64,000 nt of DNA from Candidatus Nomurabacteria bacterium RIFCSPLOWO2_01_FULL_39_18 (GTDB lineage Bacteria > Patescibacteriota > Minisyncoccia > Phycocordibacterales > UBA9973). A program made the translations under genes and the position numbers. The stretch spans positions 911 through 64,910 of the forward strand of contig MFUV01000004.1 of the NCBI GenBank assembly GCA_001787005.1, read 5' to 3'. This document shows positions 4,010-16,070 of the stretch, piece by piece (the first letter of the stretch is position 1; each line of letters opens with the position of its first letter). The notes beneath the pieces were generated by a model that saw only the letters and a list, made by a program, of their open reading frames with translations, was not told the DNA's origin and did no database searches.

Positions 4010-4741
4010 ATGCCCCAAGAATTTAGATTCTCGAAAAATGTTACCACTCTAATCAACATCCCCCTGGGCGGGCTTTTTGCAATGATTCAGGCTTTGTTTT
4101 TTATAAACGGATTGCTGTGGCTAGCAGGCATAATTTTTGCCACAGATATTAATATAATATTCTGGCTGATTTGTTTTGTTGGTATATTCATCTGCGCTTT
4201 CTTTACATCGCTTTGCGGTCTCTTGGAGTTGAAATGGAGCGCCGTCATCATGGGCACGATAGCAGGGTTAGTGTTCGTCAAAGCAACTGGAGAATTCACG
4301 CAGTTTCAGTTATTTTTCTCTTTATTCACCACGACACTGGCAACATATATTTTTTCAATGTTCCCGGAGATAAAATTAAAAAAGCCTGATTTTATAAATA
4401 ATTTAAATATAATAATCGCAGGACACGTCTTCTGCGACATTATTGTCATGATTAGTTTATTCGCCTCAATCTGGGTGGGGTGGATAAGGCCTTTTGTTTT
4501 GATTGAGATTCTAATTATCATCCTTGCTTGGTATATATTAGGCGGATGCCCTTTCACGGTCGTGGAAGTAAAATTAAATGATAGTAGCGCAAAAAAGATC
4601 ATCCAACATGGATTCCTAGTTTATTACGGAAGATCATATTTGGGACTGAAGATAGATGAGCTCAAATTTGAAACAATGCTAGACCACGTTTTCTATGTTG
4701 GCACAGCTATAATTTTCCTCCTGTGGTTTGTCCTACCGTAA
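4010..4741 (+). CDS. Hypothetical integral membrane protein
   Basis: 243 aa with multiple hydrophobic helices and no recognised motif. Confidence 0.4.
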   Translation: MPQEFRFSKNVTTLINIPLGGLFAMIQALFFINGLLWLAGIIFATDINIIFWLICFVGIFICAFFTSLCGLLELKWSAVIMGTIAGLVFVKATGEFTQFQLFFSLFTTTLATYIFSMFPEIKLKKPDFINNLNIIIAGHVFCDIIVMISLFASIWVGWIRPFVLIEILIIILAWYILGGCPFTVVEVKLNDSSAKKIIQHGFLVYYGRSYLGLKIDELKFETMLDHVFYVGTAIIFLLWFVLP

Positions 4742-6530: not shown

Positions 6531-6860
6531 GGGGTAGGTGTTGGATAGCTACTCTATAATGTAAGTTGTAGAGAGGAAAGTCCGAACACAGTTTACCCCG
6601 TATTTATGCGGGGCGAAAAATGAGTAGTGGGTAACGCCCGCATGTAGTGATGCATAGTTGCGAACAGTGACGAACCGATTTAGTTCGGGTGAAACGGCTA
6701 AATACTTACTTCTGTGCAAGATCGTGTCCAGCCCCACTTTTAATAAAGTGGGGCTGGGAGAATCGCTTGAGCCCGAGAGTAATCGAGGGCCTAGACAAAT
6801 TGCTATCGTCCCCGACCTTGGTCGAGGACCACAGAATTCGGCTTATAGACACCTACAACA
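6531..6860 (+). ncRNA. rnpB: RNase P RNA, bacterial type
   Basis: The P4 strands are present: AGAGGAAAGUCCGAACAC at 6572-6589 and ACAGAAUUCGGCUUAUAG at 6831-6848. P1 pairs gtaggtgt (6534-6541) with acacctac (6849-6856). A promoter lies upstream and a terminator downstream. Confidence 0.85.
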
Positions 6861-6871
6861 AAAATGAGAGT

Positions 6872-6897: not shown

Positions 6898-6940
6898 TTA
6901 GAAAAATATTGTGTTATTATGCCTTTATAATATTATTTTT

Positions 6941-7960
6941 ATGACGAATCTTCCTACATTAGAATTCATTCTGAAGAATTATAAAAACTTCAACTCGCGA
7001 GCAACTCGTGATGCCTTAATTGCCTATTGGAAGCACATCGAGGGCGGCGGCAAGATGTTCTGGAGTGTAGCAGGAGCCATGTCTTCCGCCCAGCTTGGCA
7101 TCACGCTCGCTCCTGCGATCAGGAGTGGGCTTATTCATGGCATGTCCGTTACTGGCGCAAATCTAGAAGAATCCCTCTTCCGCCTCGTAGCGCATGATAG
7201 CTATAAAGATTTCCCAGACTACCGCTACTTCACCAAAGAGTATGATACGAAAATTTTAGAAGACGGCATGCGCCGGGTCACAGACACTAGCATCCCAGAG
7301 GATGAAGCATTTCGAGCGGTTGAAAAGCAGTTAGTGCCTGCATGGGTGGGAGCAACAAAGGAGGGTACTCGAAAATTCTGGCATGAATATTTCTACGAAC
7401 TAATCAAGGCAATAGATAAAAGCAAACATGAGGGTAGTACGGAAGAATGCTGGCTCCTAGCCGCTGCAGAGGGCAATATCCCGATGGTTGTGCCGGGCTA
7501 CGAAGATTCTACGTTTGGAAACATTTTTGCTTCACATGTGAAGCTGGGCGATGCAAGCGCCAATATAGCTAAAAGCGGCATAGAGTACATGGGCGCATTC
7601 TATGATCAATACCAAAAGCTCTCGGAAGGCACTGGCGTCGGCTTTTTCCAAATTGGAGGAGGTATTGCGGGGGACTTCCCTATCTGCGTCGTCCCATCGA
7701 TCAAATATGACATGAAGCTCCCTGTGAAGCCTTGGGCTTATTTCTGCCAAATTTCAGATTCAACGACTTCCTACGGTTCATATTCCGGCGCCACCCCGAA
7801 CGAAAAAATAACTTGGGACAAATTGACCAAGGATACTCCGATGTTCGTGATAGAGTCGGATGCCACCATCGTTGCCCCCCTCATTCTGACTGCCCTTCTA
7901 GAATGCAAAGCAGACCCTGCAGAGGCAAATAAATTAATAGATAAATACTTGGCAGAATAA
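6941..7960 (+). CDS. Deoxyhypusine synthase-like protein (possible homospermidine synthase)
   Basis: Weak motif similarity to the deoxyhypusine synthase family (segment AGAMSSAQLG...GMSVTGANLEESLF). Lies immediately upstream of an agmatinase gene. Confidence 0.55.
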   Translation: MTNLPTLEFILKNYKNFNSRATRDALIAYWKHIEGGGKMFWSVAGAMSSAQLGITLAPAIRSGLIHGMSVTGANLEESLFRLVAHDSYKDFPDYRYFTKEYDTKILEDGMRRVTDTSIPEDEAFRAVEKQLVPAWVGATKEGTRKFWHEYFYELIKAIDKSKHEGSTEECWLLAAAEGNIPMVVPGYEDSTFGNIFASHVKLGDASANIAKSGIEYMGAFYDQYQKLSEGTGVGFFQIGGGIAGDFPICVVPSIKYDMKLPVKPWAYFCQISDSTTSYGSYSGATPNEKITWDKLTKDTPMFVIESDATIVAPLILTALLECKADPAEANKLIDKYLAE

Positions 7961-7964
7961 AATC

Positions 7965-8873
7965 ATGAAAATTAAGACAATGAAACATGGCTTTTTGGGC
8001 ACAGACCAAGGGGTTAGGTTCGATGTTGACTATGTAAAAGCGAAAGCGGTGATTATCCCTTTTGGCATGGAAGCACACGTTTCTTATGGAGCGGGAACAA
8101 AAAATGGCCCTAAGGCAATCCTTAAAGCCAGCCATGAGCTAAACGAAAATGACGAGCAAACATTGCAAGCTGTGTATAAATGCGGCCTTTCCACTTTGAA
8201 AGAACCGAAAATCCCAAAAGATTCTGCCAAAGCCATTAAGCTTTTAAAAGAAACAACTAAAAAAGTTTTAGAAGATAAAAAGTTCCCGGTTATCTTGGGA
8301 GGAGAACATGCTCTCCTCTCTGGTTCACTTGGTGCTGTCTGCGAGCACTTCCATGATGTAAGTATTTTGCATTTTGATGCTCACGCTGATCTCCGGAAAA
8401 AATATCGCGGATCAATACACAGCCATGCTTCCGCCTTAAGAAGGGCTATGGAAAACCTACCAATTAAACGCCTGGTTTCCGTAGGCATAAGAACTGTTAG
8501 TGAAGTAGATGATGAACTCGGCTTTATTTTACGAGAGAAAAAAAGGCTTAAAATTTTTTGGGGTTGGGAAAAACTTTTAGCAAAAAAAATAGTGGTTGCT
8601 ATACCGACAAAAAATGTCTATATCACTTTTGATGTAGATGCTTTTGACCTATCGATTATGCCTTCTACTGGCACGCCCGAACCTGGTGGACTTACGTGGT
8701 GGCAAACAGTAGAAATACTAAAGCTAGCTTTTAGAGAAAAAAATGTGGTCGGCTTTGATGTGGTAGAACACTCGCCTATCAAAAACTTACCTGGACCAGA
8801 CTTTCTGGTAGCGCGCTTGATTTATAAGATGATTGGTTATAAATTTTTTAGCACTAAAACCAAGGCGAAATAA
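7965..8873 (+). CDS. speB: Agmatinase / arginase-family ureohydrolase
   Basis: Arginase-family motifs GGEHAL, HFDAHADL and TFDVDAFD. Confidence 0.85.
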   Translation: MKIKTMKHGFLGTDQGVRFDVDYVKAKAVIIPFGMEAHVSYGAGTKNGPKAILKASHELNENDEQTLQAVYKCGLSTLKEPKIPKDSAKAIKLLKETTKKVLEDKKFPVILGGEHALLSGSLGAVCEHFHDVSILHFDAHADLRKKYRGSIHSHASALRRAMENLPIKRLVSVGIRTVSEVDDELGFILREKKRLKIFWGWEKLLAKKIVVAIPTKNVYITFDVDAFDLSIMPSTGTPEPGGLTWWQTVEILKLAFREKNVVGFDVVEHSPIKNLPGPDFLVARLIYKMIGYKFFSTKTKAK

Positions 8874-8885
8874 AGCTCTAACCGA

Positions 8886-9416
8886 TTAGTAACCAAATTC
8901 TACCTTATCTCCTACTTTTAAATTATATTTATCGGAAAATCCAGCCACCACTTCAAGAACATACTTAGCATCCTCGTCGGGTTCATAGGTTTCTAGAAAT
9001 AAATCCGGGTGGGCGTTTTGCTTTATGTAGACTACTCGCATATCCTCGTTAATCCAGATTATGTCTATCGGGAAATACATGTTTTTCATCCAGAAAAGAT
9101 ATTTATCGGGACGATCGAAGACGAAGAGCATGCCTGTGTCCTCTGCCATACTTCTCCTACCGGAGAGCCCCTCTCCACGAGTAGCCTCGGTGAGGGCAAG
9201 ATCCACTTTAATATTCTGCCCGGCTACCTCTATGCTCTCAATCTGTGAAAATCTATACTCCGTCGAACCACGGCTAATAAATATAAAAGCGACAAGCAAA
9301 AAAACTAAAACGGTAAGAGCCGAAAAATTTTCTTTCTTCTCTGTTTTATTTATGGTCTCCATTTGTCCAACCAAAGAGTCGTCCAATTGCTTCTGCTGTT
9401 TCTCGTTTGCGTGCAA
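8886..9416 (-). CDS. DUF192 (COG1430) family protein with an N-terminal membrane anchor
   Basis: Segments GMLFVFDRP...FWMKNMYFPIDIIWI match the DUF192 pattern. Confidence 0.55.
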   Translation of the reverse strand: MHANEKQQKQLDDSLVGQMETINKTEKKENFSALTVLVFLLVAFIFISRGSTEYRFSQIESIEVAGQNIKVDLALTEATRGEGLSGRRSMAEDTGMLFVFDRPDKYLFWMKNMYFPIDIIWINEDMRVVYIKQNAHPDLFLETYEPDEDAKYVLEVVAGFSDKYNLKVGDKVEFGY

Positions 9417-10749
9417 CTTTTATTGTTCCATCTTGGGCGATTAACTTAGCTGGAGAAGATAGTAAACAATGGTGGGAGGCTAGAGCATCTTGATAAGCAC
9501 CAGAGTCAAAGATCGCCAGATACTGTGGCTCCCCTTCCTTTAGCTTAGGCATTAGTACATAACTTCCCCCAGAAGTGTATTTATCATCAGAATCACAAGA
9601 ACTTCCAGCAAGCCAAACACTTTTGAGAGTAGTCGCATTGGCATTATTAACTGGTACTATGTGCCACTTCTGGTGGATAGCCCATGTGTCTAGAAGGTCG
9701 TTCATAAAACTTCCGTCAATTACATACCAGGATTTTGCATTTGCCTTTGGAATAGGTTTTTCGGCAATTACACTGTATATAGTGACCTGAGCTGGAGCTA
9801 CGATGTATCTACCCCATTCGACAGCCAAATTTGGATGGCGAATCCTGGCTTTATCGCTCATTTTTTTAAGAAGCTTAACTATCTGCTCAGAAACTTTTTT
9901 TGCTCCATAAAACGGCTTTTTTTCATAAGGTACTCCAAAACCGCCACCAACATCAAGCGTGTCCAAGTTCGGATGATTTTTAACCAATTTTACATACAAA
10001 CCCATGGCTTCCTCAATCGGCTGCATGACACTCTTGGCGTTGTTGATTTGTGAGCCAATGTGGTAATGCAAAAGTTTTAGGTTTTTCATTTTTGGCAAAT
10101 CAAGTAGTTCTTTCGAGGAAAATCCGAAACGATCCACTTTCTTGTCCCAGTGGGTGTCTGCTTTGGTATCTAAATTGACCCTTATCCCCACCTCGCCTTT
10201 ATATTTAGCTAAACGTTCCAGCTCGTGTTCATCTTCAATGATTGGCATTATAGATAAATCCTTGAGTCGTAATTCCTCAATCAGTTTTATATATGCTTCT
10301 GTTTTGGGACCATTACAAAGAACGCGAATTTTGGAATGGAATTTTTCTCCCTCCCAAAGCTTTTTCACAATCCAGAGTTCGTTGACCGAACCAACCTCCA
10401 TATGCGCTCCTTCAGAGATTAAAGGCATCACAAATTCTTTGTTTTGATTCACTTTCAATGGATAGTGATAGAAGAATTTACCCCGATATCCCTGAATCTT
10501 CATGTAAGCTTGAAAATAATCGTGCAGATCTTCTAAACGTTCCTCGAGAATAAATGGAAAAACTATTTCCGTGGGTGAACCGTACTTTTTTACAATATCA
10601 TTAAGATTATAAATATAGTTTCCTTCTCGGATGGTCAGCTCGCCGTCCTTGGTAATGTCAAAATACTGAGTGTTCCACTCTTCCATTCCTAGCTTCCAAA
10701 ATTTCTTCCAATTCTTGCCCGGTTTTTTTGGTTTTTTTTTCTTTGGCAT
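9346..10749 (-). CDS. PLP-dependent fold-III decarboxylase, probably arginine decarboxylase
   Basis: Orn/DAP/Arg decarboxylase signatures YPLKVNQNKEFVMPLISEG and LDTLDVGGGFGV. Lys-rich N-terminus. The neighbouring agmatinase suggests an Arg to agmatine step. Confidence 0.7.
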   Translation of the reverse strand: MPKKKKPKKPGKNWKKFWKLGMEEWNTQYFDITKDGELTIREGNYIYNLNDIVKKYGSPTEIVFPFILEERLEDLHDYFQAYMKIQGYRGKFFYHYPLKVNQNKEFVMPLISEGAHMEVGSVNELWIVKKLWEGEKFHSKIRVLCNGPKTEAYIKLIEELRLKDLSIMPIIEDEHELERLAKYKGEVGIRVNLDTKADTHWDKKVDRFGFSSKELLDLPKMKNLKLLHYHIGSQINNAKSVMQPIEEAMGLYVKLVKNHPNLDTLDVGGGFGVPYEKKPFYGAKKVSEQIVKLLKKMSDKARIRHPNLAVEWGRYIVAPAQVTIYSVIAEKPIPKANAKSWYVIDGSFMNDLLDTWAIHQKWHIVPVNNANATTLKSVWLAGSSCDSDDKYTSGGSYVLMPKLKEGEPQYLAIFDSGAYQDALASHHCLLSSPAKLIAQDGTIKVARKRETAEAIGRLFGWTNGDHK

Positions 10750-11290: not shown

Positions 11291-12469
11291 TTACCCATAT
11301 TTTTTTGAGACTTCTCGATATGCTTCTCGGAAAGACATTCCTTTTTCAACTAAGTTATAAACTTCAGCCGTAGCGTAGAGTTCTGAAGTTAATCCATTTT
11401 CACATTTCTTTTGATTAACTTTTAGATTCTTAAAGATTTCAGCCAACATGTATAAACTTTCTGAAACAATTTCAAAGGTTTTAAATACTGGCTCTTTAAG
11501 TAACTGCAAATCTCTGTGATAGCCTGATATTAAATTACTAGTAATACCCTTTACCCGTAACTCGCAAGAGACTACTGTATGATATTTTGCTCTCAGTAAT
11601 TCCAACACATCAGGATTTTTCTTTTGTGGCATTATCGAACTGCCTGTGCGAAATTCCTTGGGTAATTCAAAGTAACCAAATTCCGACATGCTGAACATAA
11701 TTAAGTCCGATGATATTTTATTGGCATCAAACATAATTTGAGCAAGGGCATGCAAAATCGCCGATTCAAACTTACCACGACTGTTTTGCGCATAAATTGG
11801 ATTTTGTTGAACTTTTTTGAAACCTAAAATTTTTGCGGTAAAGTTTCTTTCAATTCTTATAGGCAAGCCGTATCCAGCCGCAGTTCCGAGTGGAGACTGA
11901 TCTATTAAGTCCTCTGCGTAAGCCAAAGATTTTAAATTATCTTGCATGGAATCTATAAAACTTTCTGCCAACATTTTTATTGATGAAGGCATAGCTTTGC
12001 GAGTATGCGTGTAGCCAGGAAATTTAATTTTTCCATAAAGCTTGGAAAAATTTCGCAAGCTACTAATAAATTTCTCACACAACTCATTACAAATCTTTAA
12101 GTTATCTTTGTAATATAATCTCAAAGCAACCAGAACTTGATCATTGCGAGAACGAGCAGTGTGAATTTTCTCTCCCAATATTCCCAACTTTTTAGTAAGA
12201 TAATTTTCTATGGCTGTATGACAGTCTTCTTGTTCGGGTAAGATTTTGAACTTACCTTTTGCGTCTAAACTAATAATTTCTTGTAAGGATTTAGATAGCT
12301 TTTTCACCTCTGTACTTTTGAGTAGTCCGATTTTCCCCAGCATTTGGGCATGAGCCGTGGAAGCCAAACAGTCATACTTGACCAGTTGTTGGTCAAGAAT
12401 ATAATCTTGTCCCACCGTAAATTTCTCTACATCTTTATTTAATTTGTAATTTTTTTGCCAGAGTTTCAT
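11291..12469 (-). CDS. argH: Argininosuccinate lyase, apparently lacking ~60 C-terminal residues
   Basis: Fumarate-lyase signature GSSIMPQKKNPD and an ArgH-like N-terminus. At 392 aa it is ~65 aa shorter than typical, ending shortly after FREAYREV. Its start overlaps the argG stop. Confidence 0.8.
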   Translation of the reverse strand: MKLWQKNYKLNKDVEKFTVGQDYILDQQLVKYDCLASTAHAQMLGKIGLLKSTEVKKLSKSLQEIISLDAKGKFKILPEQEDCHTAIENYLTKKLGILGEKIHTARSRNDQVLVALRLYYKDNLKICNELCEKFISSLRNFSKLYGKIKFPGYTHTRKAMPSSIKMLAESFIDSMQDNLKSLAYAEDLIDQSPLGTAAGYGLPIRIERNFTAKILGFKKVQQNPIYAQNSRGKFESAILHALAQIMFDANKISSDLIMFSMSEFGYFELPKEFRTGSSIMPQKKNPDVLELLRAKYHTVVSCELRVKGITSNLISGYHRDLQLLKEPVFKTFEIVSESLYMLAEIFKNLKVNQKKCENGLTSELYATAEVYNLVEKGMSFREAYREVSKKYG

Positions 12470-13734
12470 TTTTTATCTTTTTTATTTTTAACTGATAATT
12501 GATTTGCTAGTTTCATCTGTAAAGAGTAAATTTCAATAAATCCTGCACTTGCATTTACATTGAGTCCATACCCCTCTGTGTTATTAAATGAAGCATGGTC
12601 TAAGGCGTACGGAGACTGTACTGTGATGACAGTGGTGTTACCTTTGAATAATCTAATTTGTACTTTTCCTGTGACTTTTTGATTAATGAAATCATTAAAA
12701 TGATTTATTGATTGCATCGCTGGGTCATACCACTGAGCTCCATAGCATAAGTAGCCCCACTTTATGTCAGAAATTTCCTTGAGTTCATTCTGCACTCTTG
12801 TGCAAACATATTTTTCTAAATTCTTATGCGCTTCAATAATTACGTGTGCCGCAGGATGTTCATAAACACCACGATTTTTCAAACCAACAATTCTATCTTC
12901 AAGTAAGTAAACAGTTCCAACTCCGTGCTTCCCCGCTAATTTATTTAGTTTAACTATCAGCTTTGCTAATGACATTTTTGTGCCGTTTAAAGCCACAGGT
13001 AGACCTTGGTTAAAATCTAGAGTTACTATTCCTGGTTCGTCTGGTGCATTTTTGGGTAAAGTATAAGTGGTCAAAAACTTTTCTTCCGGCACTATTTGGG
13101 TTGGATTTGTAATTTCCCCGCCTTCCCAAGTAATGCCCCACATGTTGTCATCGTCGCTGTAAGGAAAATCTAGAGAAGCAGGAATAGGAATATTATTTTT
13201 TTGAGCGTATTTTATTTCTGCATTTCTGTCCATGTTCCACTCTCGAACTGGCGCAAGAATTTTTATTTTTGGTTCCAAAGCTACAACATAACCTTCAATT
13301 CTAACTTGGTCATTACCCTTACCCGTGCAACCGTGAGCAATACAATCAGCGTTTTCTTTTTTAGCTATTTCTACCGCCTTCTTTGCTAATATGGCCCTAC
13401 CGATTGGTGTAGAAAGATGATAGTTACCTTGATAACAAGCATTGGCTTTAATTCCATAAGAAATATATTCTTTAGCAAATTCTTCTCTCACATCTAAAGC
13501 GATAGCTTTTATTGCTCCGAACTTTAAAGCTTTTTGTCTAATTGCTTATAAGTCATCGTGTTGCTGACCTAAGTTTAGAGTTAAAGCAATAACTTGAACT
13601 TTATATTGATCCTGAATCCACTTAAGCATCACCGAAGTATCTAAACCTCCGGAATACAAAAGTAAAACTTTTTTTATCTCCCCTTTTTGCGCTTCATAAG
13701 AAGCGACTTTTATGTAAGATGTTTTTTTATTCAT
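12466..13734 (-). pseudogene. argG: Argininosuccinate synthase interrupted by a single in-frame TAA
   Basis: The 62-aa ORF 13546..13734 ([14 protein letters not shown]...LGQQHDDL) and the 341-aa ORF 12466..13491 are in the same frame. Reading through gives ...QQHDDL*AIRQKALKFGAIKAIALDVREEF..., which is contiguous ArgG sequence. The stop is the rc of tta at 13546-13548. Confidence 0.75.
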
Positions 13735-13785: not shown

Positions 13786-14000
13786 CGAAAAAAGCTCCGT
13801 CCCCGGGGAAAACGTAAAGTTTCCCTCAAGGACGGAGCTTGTAAAAGTCCGTGGTACCACCCTGGTTCCATCTCAACAATCAAAATGAGATGACACTTGA
13901 TCCGAGACTAACATCCCGGTGTCTAATTTTACGGTTAGACTTCCGTAAGGCATTTTTGCCTTCAGCTGGCAGGACGCGACTCTCGCTCGTAACGCTTTAT
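13786..14000 (-). promoter_or_regulatory. T-box-like leader with an intrinsic terminator upstream of argG
   Basis: On the minus strand, AACCAGGGUGGUACCACGGAC (plus 13847-13869) matches the T-box consensus AGGGUGGNACCGCG. It is followed by a 10-bp-stem hairpin AGCUCCGUCC...GGACGGAGCU plus U6 (plus 13786-13839). TTGACA sits at plus 14047-14052. Confidence 0.55.
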
Positions 14001-14082
14001 AAGGTAATATTTAATTGTGAGAAAAGTTTAACAAAATCAAGGTTCTTGTCAACTGTGGATAACTATGGCTTGATTTTCATTT

Positions 14083-14104: not shown

Positions 14105-14362
14105 ATGAACATAAAAACACTTTCAACAACACAGGCCAGAAAAGATATGAGCGATTTGATAAACATTGTCTCTATAAGTCGCAAATCAATTGTCATCGGA
14201 CGCAGGAATGTTCCGGAAGTAGTTCTGATCCCCTTCCCGGCATTTTGGAATGGCAAACTTTCTGAGATAACCAACATGAATACATACTCTAAAAGTTTTG
14301 ATTTTCTTAAAGACGAACCGGAAATTTATTCTGTAAAAGATATAAAAAAGAGATATGCATAA
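14105..14362 (+). CDS. Phd/YefM-family antitoxin
   Basis: Segment MNIKTLSTTQARKDMSDLINIVSISRKSIVIGRRNVPEVVLIPF. The 3' end overlaps the toxin gene. Confidence 0.7.
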   Translation: MNIKTLSTTQARKDMSDLINIVSISRKSIVIGRRNVPEVVLIPFPAFWNGKLSEITNMNTYSKSFDFLKDEPEIYSVKDIKKRYA

Positions 14363-14696
14363 AATAGGAGATATCGTACTGACGCCTTTCCCTTTTACCG
14401 ACCTTTCTGGTAATAAAGTTCGCCCGGCTCTTGTGCTCGGAGTACAAGACGGAGGCGATGATGTAACTGTTTGCTTTATTTCTTCTAATGAGCAAAACAA
14501 AATTCATAAGTTTGATATTCTGATTGACTTTAAAGATAAAAGCTTCAAAAAGACAGGGCTTAAGTTAAAATCAATTATTAAAGTAGTAAAAATAGCTACT
14601 CTAGATAAAGTGGTGATTCTAGGAAAAATTGGAGAGCTGGATACTTCAAATATGCGAAGGGTAAAAAATGTTTTGAAAGTTTATTTTGGATTGTAG
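14355..14696 (+). CDS. PemK/MazF-family toxin
   Basis: Segment GDIVLTPFPFTDLSGNKVRPALVLGV. Confidence 0.75.
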   Translation: MHKIGDIVLTPFPFTDLSGNKVRPALVLGVQDGGDDVTVCFISSNEQNKIHKFDILIDFKDKSFKKTGLKLKSIIKVVKIATLDKVVILGKIGELDTSNMRRVKNVLKVYFGL

Positions 14697-15957: not shown

Positions 15958-16070
15958 AAAATGGGGGCAAGGTAATGTTTTTAGAGACTTGCGAGAGCGA
16001 CGGCTCGAACACGAGGAATTTTTTAGCAAAAAAATATCCGTGCTCTAAAAACATTACCTTGCCCCCATTT
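15958..16070. repeat. Composite palindromic element between tgt and mreC
   Basis: A perfect 28-bp inverted repeat, aaatgggggcaaggtaatgtttttagag at 15958-15985 and its reverse complement at 16043-16070. It encloses an AT-type hairpin at 16007-16045 that recurs inside pheT. The right arm encodes the last residues and stop of mreC. Confidence 0.55.

Follow-up and report, generated by a model that had tools for sequence, protein, structure and literature searches.

Can a T-box leader with an ultrashort Stem I still decide between termination and readthrough by reading a tRNA? The question is raised by the minus-strand leader of argG-argH in a 64,000-nucleotide (nt) stretch of contig MFUV01000004.1 from Candidatus Nomurabacteria bacterium RIFCSPLOWO2_01_FULL_39_18, a genome of the candidate phyla radiation (CPR); we call the whole stretch the window. 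A first-pass annotation had placed a T-box leader with a terminator ahead of these arginine genes, and this assignment is now supported by 20 homologous leaders, by covariation and by a lineage-specific covariance model. Most probably, the leader is a T-box that reads tRNA-Arg and governs argG-argH through transcription attenuation. On sequence grounds the element is a T-box by its discriminator domain, its pseudoknot, its specifier logic and its homology to a leader scoring above the Rfam gathering threshold, and its specificity is probably for arginine.

Expression platform and covariance support

Read on the minus strand, positions 14001-13787 (215 nt) hold a T-box leader (Table 1) that folds better than shuffled sequence (z = -5.2). 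The T-box sequence AACCAGGGUGGUACCACGGAC spans 13867-13847 and its core, AGGGUGGUACCACGG, spans 13863-13849. Within it, AGGGUGGUACCACG (13863-13850) is identical to the conserved 14-nt T-box AGGGUGGNACCGCG at 13 of 14 positions, which bears out the near-perfect match first reported; the sole mismatch, G to A, sits in helix A2 and is compensated (ACGGA/UCCGU). As the annotation had suggested, ACGGA can pair with UCCGU of the 5′ terminator arm, forming an antiterminator. The UGGU of its bulge (13859-13856) is predicted to pair with the tRNA 3′ ACCA and, as also foreseen, implies discriminator A73.

The predicted intrinsic terminator is likewise present, its arms AAGCUCCGUCC (13840-13830) and GGACGGAGCUU (13802-13792) being prolonged by an upper helix, GGGAAAC/GUUUUCC, and followed by the expected U6. 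The 3′ half of the antiterminator is the 5′ arm of the terminator and the 3′ strand of helix A1 is paired in the terminator fold, so that the two folds are mutually exclusive. When these folds were modelled, as had been advised, the terminator reached -37.5 kcal/mol versus -7.2 to -9.5 kcal/mol for the antiterminator. Because the terminator is much the stronger, the default state should be OFF, as in other T-boxes. Upstream, the TTGACA -35 element noted earlier was found together with a TAAACT, and transcription is predicted to start near 14018; in relatives, TTGACA-17-TATAAT stands immediately 5′ of the leader.

To place the leader among its relatives, we fetched 160 loci encoding ArgG relatives, which with the window make 161 sources, some loci being duplicates. 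The nearest ArgG relatives (up to 81% identity) come from Patescibacteria/Microgenomates metagenome-assembled genomes (MAGs), including Daviesbacteria, Woesebacteria, Gottesmanbacteria, Roizmanbacteria and others, and a metagenome scan returned no relative above 78% ArgG identity. A T-box core is found on the argG strand in at least 64 of the 161 sources, and the element is widespread in Microgenomates-like MAGs, not unique to the window genome. A T-box in a CPR genome is noteworthy, as the annotation expected; no paper within reach of our literature search connects the two. T-box motifs directly 5′ of argG are almost absent in the relatives; the usual position is about 1.3 kb 5′ of argG, because the leader sits before argH, which comes first in most of them.

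Group 1, to which the window belongs, comprises 20 distinct leaders (window, L001, L003, L005, L006, L012, L014, L015, L016, L025, L031, L058, L063, L064, L070, L078, L089, L095, L126, L127), five of them found by covariance model and not by motif. In its layout, a stem of 5-7 base pairs (bp) carrying a terminal loop of 6-8 nt (N-GUCGCG-N) is followed by a 5-bp Stem II with loop CAAAAU, by Stem IIA/B and Stem III and finally by the discriminator domain. All 20 precede argH/argG/argF operons, four of which include argS. Group 2 (L002, L009-L011, L019, L020, L022, L023, L033, L047, L049, L053, L079, L092, L104) has a kink-turn (K-turn) and a 6-bp stem with loop CGCA. Group 3 (L008, L032, L039, L040, L044, L050, L051, L056, L057, L085) has a clear K-turn around a short Stem I and keeps an S-turn (GAAGAAAG...AAGUAG), and the long-Stem-I forms (L007, L061, L075, L136) look canonical. 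Other Microgenomates thus have, at this operon position, at least two more Arg T-box architectures with a short Stem I, groups 2 and 3. The expression platform is present in every group-1 leader, with a 5-bp A1, a 7-nt bulge UGG[U/C]A.., a covarying A2 (ACGGA/UCCGU, GCCUU/AAGGC, GUCCU/AGGAC, GCGAG/CUCGU, GCGUU/AACGC and others) and an overlapping terminator. These terminators, of -20 to -39 kcal/mol, use the A1 3′ strand and are followed by U5-7.

Covariance models agree with this picture. In E-value mode, the Rfam T-box model RF00230 aligns end to end with the leader (model positions 1-219) at 41 bits, with an expectation value (E) of 1.1e-7 in a 551-nt search and of 1.2e-5 across the whole 64 kb against all 4227 Rfam families; good alignment extends over Stem II, Stem IIA (CCGUAA), Stem III and the antiterminator. 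When 14 relatives, without the window, were used to build a covariance model of the 5′ domain, this matched 13997-13927 on the minus strand (58.1 bits, E 3e-11), its sole significant match in the 64 kb. We also scored Stem I, Stem II, Stem IIA and the closing pairs in a MAFFT alignment of 15 group-1 5′ domains. Standard pairs fill 90.0% of cells, compared with 70.3 ± 1.7% after column shuffling (0 of 500 shuffles attain the observed value) and 22-46% when the partner is slid by 1-3 columns. Changes occur on both sides in 13 of 16 pairs, and all five pairs of Stem I and all five of Stem II covary.

The decoding module and its proposed specifier

The annotation had called for a search for Stem I and its specifier, and this yielded an ultrashort, covarying Stem I (13969-13986) with CGC in its loop. 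Stem I amounts to 24 nt versus 90 in the Rfam model, as a hairpin of 5-6 bp with a 6-7 nt loop, and has no AG bulge, distal loop or tRNA-elbow platform. At its base, the K-turn-like region has GC/GC closing pairs and a GUU bulge; tandem G.A pairs occur in some relatives (L005, L064), GA stands opposite CA in the window, and the closing-stem pairs (columns 3-4/36-37 of the 15-sequence alignment) are 77% paired. Stem II has no S-turn (GAA ... AGUA), the second strand for it being missing, and the AAAU positions of its loop are invariant in the 15 sequences.

The Stem IIA/B pseudoknot covaries in relatives (GGCUG/CAGCC, GAUAU/AUAUC, UUUGGA/UCCAAA, ACUG/CAGU). Summed over 15 leaders and counting Watson-Crick pairs only, its complementarity is 54, compared with 43.9 ± 2.9 for shuffled sequences (P 0.0015) and 42.4 ± 3.0 with partners permuted (P < 0.0005); a per-sequence shuffle test that allowed G.U pairs over a 34-nt search space was not significant. 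The hairpin inserted after the pseudoknot has counterparts in L001, L015, L064 and L058. Separately, a conserved element, GUGUCGGNAACGGAGC, lies 3′ of the pseudoknot in group 2 and in some group-1 leaders.

Table 1 Features of the argG-argH leader and its downstream genes in the window.
Feature	Position	Strand	Description	Basis
Sigma-70-type promoter	14025..14052	-	TTGACA (14052-14047), 16-nt spacer, TG-extended TAAACT (14030-14025)	10/12 matches, TG present
Stem I base	13987..13996	-	AGC GUU ACGA pairing with CA-GCU (13968-13964); K-turn-like (GA-motif), partly canonical	Sequence and alignment
Ultrashort Stem I	13969..13986	-	Hairpin GCGAGA-GUCGCG-UCCUGC, without distal bulge or loop elements	Comparative
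Proposed specifier	13976..13978	-	CGC (Arg) between an invariant U (13979) and an invariant G (13975)	Comparative
Minimal Stem II	13947..13962	-	AAGGC-AAAAAU-GCCUU, 5-bp stem, conserved A-rich 6-nt loop	5/5 pairs covary
Stem IIA	13931..13946	-	ACGG-AAGUCUAA-CCGU, then AAAA (F-box-like CCGUAA)	Rfam alignment; 97% of cells paired, 2 pairs covary
Stem IIB pseudoknot strand	13921..13926	-	UUAGAC, pairs with GUCUAA in the IIA loop (13941-13936), 6 Watson-Crick pairs	
Lineage-specific extra hairpin	13902..13919	-	CCGGGA-UGUUAG-UCUCGG, then linker AAGUG (13898-13894)	Insertion relative to Rfam model
Stem III	13868..13893	-	UCAUCUCA-UUUUGAUUGU-UGAGAUGG	Rfam alignment and minimum-free-energy fold
Antiterminator	13827..13864	-	A1 CAGGG/CCUUG (5 bp), 7-nt bulge UGGUACC, A2 ACGGA/UCCGU (5 bp)	Includes T-box sequence 13863-13849
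Intrinsic terminator	13788..13840	-	14+7 bp, -37.5 kcal/mol, then U6 (13793-13788)	
argG	12466..13734	-	Argininosuccinate synthase, putative regulated gene; in-frame TAA 13548-13546	Arginosuc_synth domains
argH	11291..12469	-	Argininosuccinate lyase, putative regulated gene; 4-nt overlap with argG end	Pfam Lyase_1 9.8e-45

We propose CGC as the specifier, with the reading frame set by comparison. Every one of the 20 group-1 leaders has the same pentamer, UCGCG, in its Stem I loop (specifier U-CGC-G), while the stem below it covaries. Group 2 shows (U/C)-CGC-A in all members except one, group 3 shows U-CGA-G or U-AGA-G just 5′ of the K-turn 3′ strand, which is the canonical T-box place for a codon plus purine, and the long-Stem-I forms show AGA-G or AGG-G. 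CGC is the only triplet common to groups 1 and 2, and each architecture presents an Arg codon followed by a purine. An AGA specifier near 13930-13940, as first suggested, does not hold: that AGA belongs to UUAGAC (13926-13921), the 3′ strand of the pseudoknot, and the proposed specifier is CGC at 13978-13976. Other candidate sites were set aside, namely CGG-A in group 3, which forms the 3′ strand of the K-turn (there, the specifier is the U-CGA-G or U-AGA-G just before it), the L049 hairpin CGGCACG, which is an insert, and the group-2 helix CGUAG/CUACG, which is a covarying Stem II.

The tRNAs encoded on the same contigs agree with the bulge in two related contigs, both with isoacceptors other than the CGC reader. 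In L085, with bulge UGGC and specifier U-AGA-G, a tRNA-Arg(UCU) carries discriminator G and an anticodon loop, UUCUA, complementary over five positions; in L104, with bulge UGGU, a tRNA-Arg(CCU) carries discriminator A. Scans of 120 loci found no tRNA-Arg(ACG/GCG), the only tRNA-Arg isoacceptors being UCU and CCU. CGC makes up 24% of the Arg codons in the open reading frames (ORFs) of the window, and it fits the reported preference for C-ending specifiers (PMC7778990).

The window copy, its neighbourhood and the competing readings

The window is 100% identical to contig MFTP01000002.1 of NCBI assembly GCA_001785325.1, a MAG from the Rifle aquifer dataset. The argG ATG at 13734 lies 53 nt past the U-tract, and the order downstream is argG, argH, a 96-residue ORF, a gap, an ornithine/arginine (Orn/Arg) decarboxylase and a DUF192 protein; the window ArgH is 52% identical to that of L015. 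In the opposite direction, 5′ of the arg genes, stand a PhD/YefM-PemK toxin-antitoxin pair and then tgt. Gene order differs among relatives: T-box, argH, argG, argF, argS in L015, argH-argG-argF-argS in most others, and T-box, argF, argG, argH in the closest relative, L001. In the Daviesbacteria contig L012, a group-1 T-box at 4274-4438 lies 3′ of argG and 5′ of argH-argF. With neighbours of the leader differing in this way, gene order appears fluid across the clade, and a local rearrangement in the window is plausible because argF, which lies between T-box and argG in L001, is absent here and a toxin-antitoxin pair sits beside the promoter.

Several neighbours merit separate mention. The PhD/YefM-like antitoxin (14105-14362) and PemK-family toxin (14355-14696), both on the plus strand, separate tgt from the T-box promoter and are divergent to the arg operon. 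Adjoining the arg genes at 6911-10749 is an arginine-to-polyamine gene cluster with the Orn/Arg decarboxylase (10749-9346, minus strand), the DUF192 gene, an arginase/agmatinase-family gene (7965-8873, plus strand) and a deoxyhypusine-synthase-like gene (6911-7960, plus strand); arginine made by ArgG and ArgH may feed polyamine synthesis. An RNase P RNA of bacterial class A at 6533-6861 on the plus strand scores 102.2 bits against a gathering score of 100, with several model helices shortened or deleted, a weak score consistent with a reduced CPR RNase P. Finally, the mreC-tgt intergenic region carries a perfect 28-nt inverted repeat (15959-15986 / 16043-16070; AAATGGGGGCAAGGTAATGTTTTTAGAG and its complement, arms 56 nt apart), a candidate long hairpin, terminator or small mobile element.

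A number of observations speak against a working arginine T-box at this locus. The leader is not reported by RF00230 at the gathering threshold of 93 bits, its 41 bits being under half of that value. The K-turn of the window is imperfect, and its Stem I, which contains an A.C mismatch and a G.U pair, is the weakest of the family at -2.7 kcal/mol. Folded by itself, the 35-nt region is predicted to adopt an alternative hairpin, GCGA-GAG-UCGC (-4 to -7 kcal/mol), that leaves CGC 98-99% paired. The group-2 relative L062 has AGC in place of CGC, and the window encodes no tRNA-Arg gene, only tRNA-Ala(UGC) and tRNA-Thr(UGU). No Shine-Dalgarno sequence is visible before argG on reading the sequence, and neither argF nor argS is present within the window. 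Codon 63 of argG is an in-frame TAA in an otherwise intact 422-codon gene, and argG is split in the same way (62 + 341 residues) in four assemblies.

The Rfam result needs particular care, because the first-pass annotation had named a sub-threshold covariance score as grounds for giving up the T-box, leaving a chance motif and a plain attenuator. The score does fall short, as stated above; the 20 homologous leaders, the covariation and the lineage-specific model nevertheless show the element to be real, and the deficit comes entirely from Stem I, which is naturally truncated. Among 20 loci tested at the gathering threshold, ten of them from ultrashort group 1, only the long-Stem-I L007 passed (97.8 bits), and the tested members of groups 1, 2 and 3 failed.

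The damage to argG bears on another possibility, that the leader is a decaying relic which descended from a functional arginine T-box and offers no useful regulation now that the arginine module is being lost. We consider this unlikely, though it deserves to be taken seriously. The position of the TAA is a sense codon in all 108 relatives compared (Glu in 72, Lys in 14, other sense codons in the rest; stop never), and the lesion recurs in four assemblies; the one seemingly divergent assembly differs only at a contig end, so the assemblies probably sample one population. The NCBI record for the identical sequence does not call argG. The loss of argF relative to L001, the Stem I mismatch, the missing Shine-Dalgarno sequence and a spacer to argG longer than in relatives fit decay too, as does the predicted burial of the specifier, UCGCG being unpaired in the minimum-free-energy fold of 10 of 13 relatives, unlike the window. 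Against this, the TAA is the single lesion seen over the 1269 nt of argG, 16 contigs carry an intact argH of identical sequence, and neither the promoter nor Stem II, pseudoknot, Stem III, antiterminator or terminator is damaged. With the model of its relatives, the 5′ domain still reaches 58 bits, and a 35-nt secondary-structure prediction disregards tertiary contacts and tRNA-induced fit. A version of Stem I built on GCGA-GAG-UCGC with a 3′ internal loop (GCC-A, UGC) was considered as the functional fold and dropped on comparison with relatives; it remains a local minimum-free-energy prediction. The TAA itself marks either a recent pseudogene or a readthrough site, and the arginine module of this genome is possibly decaying, in which case the window T-box could be a copy that is weakening or was orphaned recently.

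If the leader is a working T-box, the loop GUCGCG might be read in another frame, as GCG (Ala), UCG (Ser) or GUC (Val), for a tRNA other than tRNA-Arg. All three triplets lie within the invariant loop, GCG followed by A would satisfy the codon-plus-purine rule in 12 leaders, and a tRNA-Ala(UGC) with A73 is encoded in the window. We find this improbable. With group 1, group 2 has CGC alone in common (loop CGCA); at the corresponding place, group 3 and the long-Stem-I forms carry CGA, AGA or AGG, all of them Arg codons. GCG is followed by A, U or C, whereas CGC is followed by a purine in every case. The variable nucleotide of the bulge takes just two forms, U and C, which calls for A or G as the discriminator, and the UGGC found in about half of the leaders requires G73. 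tRNA-Ala and tRNA-Val carry A73, and bacterial tRNA-Arg A73 or G73; the A-or-G discriminator thus fits bacterial tRNA-Arg and not tRNA-Ala or tRNA-Val. The operons, moreover, consist of arginine genes, four of them with argS.

A translational T-box that sequesters the ribosome-binding site, like those of actinobacterial ileS, is suggested by the ultrashort Stem I, a hallmark of the translational class (PMC7583486). We hold it to be very improbable, since the 3′ alternative structure is a 21-bp GC-rich hairpin with U6 directly after it, 53 nt before the start codon and with no Shine-Dalgarno sequence inside, and U5-7 follows the hairpin in all 20 relatives. That the leader is a plain intrinsic terminator or a non-tRNA attenuator resembling a T-box by chance is scarcely credible, for although the score falls short of the Rfam gathering threshold and the tRNA-elbow platform is missing from Stem I, the full-length model alignment (E 1.2e-5 window-wide), the independent 5′-domain model (E 3e-11) and 20 homologues sharing covariation and gene context effectively refute it. 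We therefore retain the arginine T-box as our reading of the leader; for the window copy, we infer tRNA binding, the identity of the isoacceptor and switching.

A probable minimal transcriptional T-box

The window leader shares with canonical transcriptional T-boxes (RF00230; Bacillus subtilis tyrS, glyQS type) the T-box sequence, the 7-nt UGGN bulge, helices A1 and A2, a mutually exclusive terminator with U-tract, Stem III, a IIA/B pseudoknot with CCGUAA, a specifier of codon plus purine, and a default OFF state. It differs in a Stem I of about 24 nt instead of about 90 nt, in the absence of AG bulge, distal loop and elbow platform, in having no S-turn in either the specifier region or Stem II, which is here a 5-bp hairpin, and in presenting the codon in a terminal loop rather than an internal one. 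Long-Stem-I Arg T-boxes at the same operon position in other CPR genomes (L007, L061, L075, L136) have the same context before argH, Arg specifiers and the discriminator domain in common with it; they still have the distal part of Stem I and, in Stem II, the S-turn (GAAGAAAG...AAGUAG), both of which the window class has lost. Vitreschak and colleagues are said to have described, in 2008, Arg-specific T-boxes of Firmicutes on argS and arginine-biosynthesis genes in some Clostridia, with a canonical long Stem I. Those elements and the window leader would be alike in that tRNA-Arg-dependent attenuation of arginine genes replaces the ArgR repressor.

A structural parallel to the truncated Stem I lies with the ileS T-boxes of Actinobacteria (Mycobacterium tuberculosis, Mycobacterium smegmatis, Nocardia farcinica; TBDB class II), which likewise lack the elbow-binding motif, place the specifier about 16-22 nt from the 5′ end and complete the decoding module with Stem II and the IIA/B pseudoknot (PMC7583486, PMC11297988). 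They act by Shine-Dalgarno sequestration and not by an intrinsic terminator, and they differ in phylum, amino acid and regulated genes. Their Stem II is long and contains an S-turn whose purine string clamps the codon-anticodon helix (PMC7583486), whereas that of the window is a 16-nt hairpin, and shortening Stem II in M. tuberculosis ileS abolishes tRNA binding (PMC11297988). According to reviews, transcriptional T-boxes generally cannot catch tRNA quickly enough unless Stem I is long and bears the elbow-binding motif, and an ultrashort Stem I is tolerated only in translational T-boxes, which rely on the S-turn Stem II (PMC7583486 section 6.2; PMC11297988). Some class I matches in TBDB do have a truncated Stem I. 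Our literature search found no paper linking T-boxes to CPR, Patescibacteria or Microgenomates; the main primary comparative papers were outside its reach, and a prior description is possible. What appears to be new is a terminator-coupled, probably Arg-specific T-box whose Stem I is ultrashort and which lacks an S-turn, a form conserved among Microgenomates-like CPR genomes.

We propose the following model of function. Transcription would begin at the promoter (14052-14025), and the first ~70 nt would fold into the reduced decoding module, in which the K-turn-like base, a 5-6 bp Stem I displaying U-CGC-G, the Stem II hairpin and the IIA/B pseudoknot come together. CGC would pair with the anticodon of a CGC-reading tRNA-Arg. 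If this tRNA is uncharged, its 3′ ACCA would pair with UGGU in the bulge and stabilise the weak antiterminator (about -7 to -9 kcal/mol), and RNA polymerase would read through into argG-argH. With the tRNA charged or absent, the terminator (-37.5 kcal/mol, U6) would form and transcription would stop at about 13788. The conserved U that precedes the codon and the conserved G that follows it might lengthen the codon-anticodon helix to A37 and U33 of the tRNA, or might shape the 7-nt loop like an anticodon loop. By analogy with the ileS T-boxes, the invariant A-rich loop of Stem II could take the role of the S-turn purine string.

On this basis we put forward, tentatively and as a possibility that we would not yet favour outright, an undescribed co-transcriptional T-box class of CPR bacteria of the Microgenomates type. 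It would use a decoding module of about 70 nt, a codon shown in a 7-nt terminal loop resembling an anticodon loop, where U-CGC-G could form up to five pairs with U33-A37 of tRNA-Arg, and a 5-bp Stem II hairpin with an invariant A-rich loop in place of the S-turn, and would make no elbow contact, yet it would drive a kinetic decision between terminator and antiterminator. If true, such a minimal class would contradict the view that transcriptional T-boxes need a long Stem I platform, and it would be the smallest natural tRNA-decoding riboswitch module. In this family a classical terminator goes together with a Stem I that is ultrashort and a Stem II that is minimal, and at least 20 CPR genomes conserve the arrangement, with covariation. 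If functional, the family would offer a natural minimal system for asking what co-transcriptional tRNA sensing requires, would extend T-box regulation to CPR, and would mean that the Rfam gathering threshold misses most T-boxes in CPR genomes (one of the 20 loci tested passed). Arginine synthesis in these reduced genomes would then be tied to the charging of tRNA-Arg and not to ArgR.

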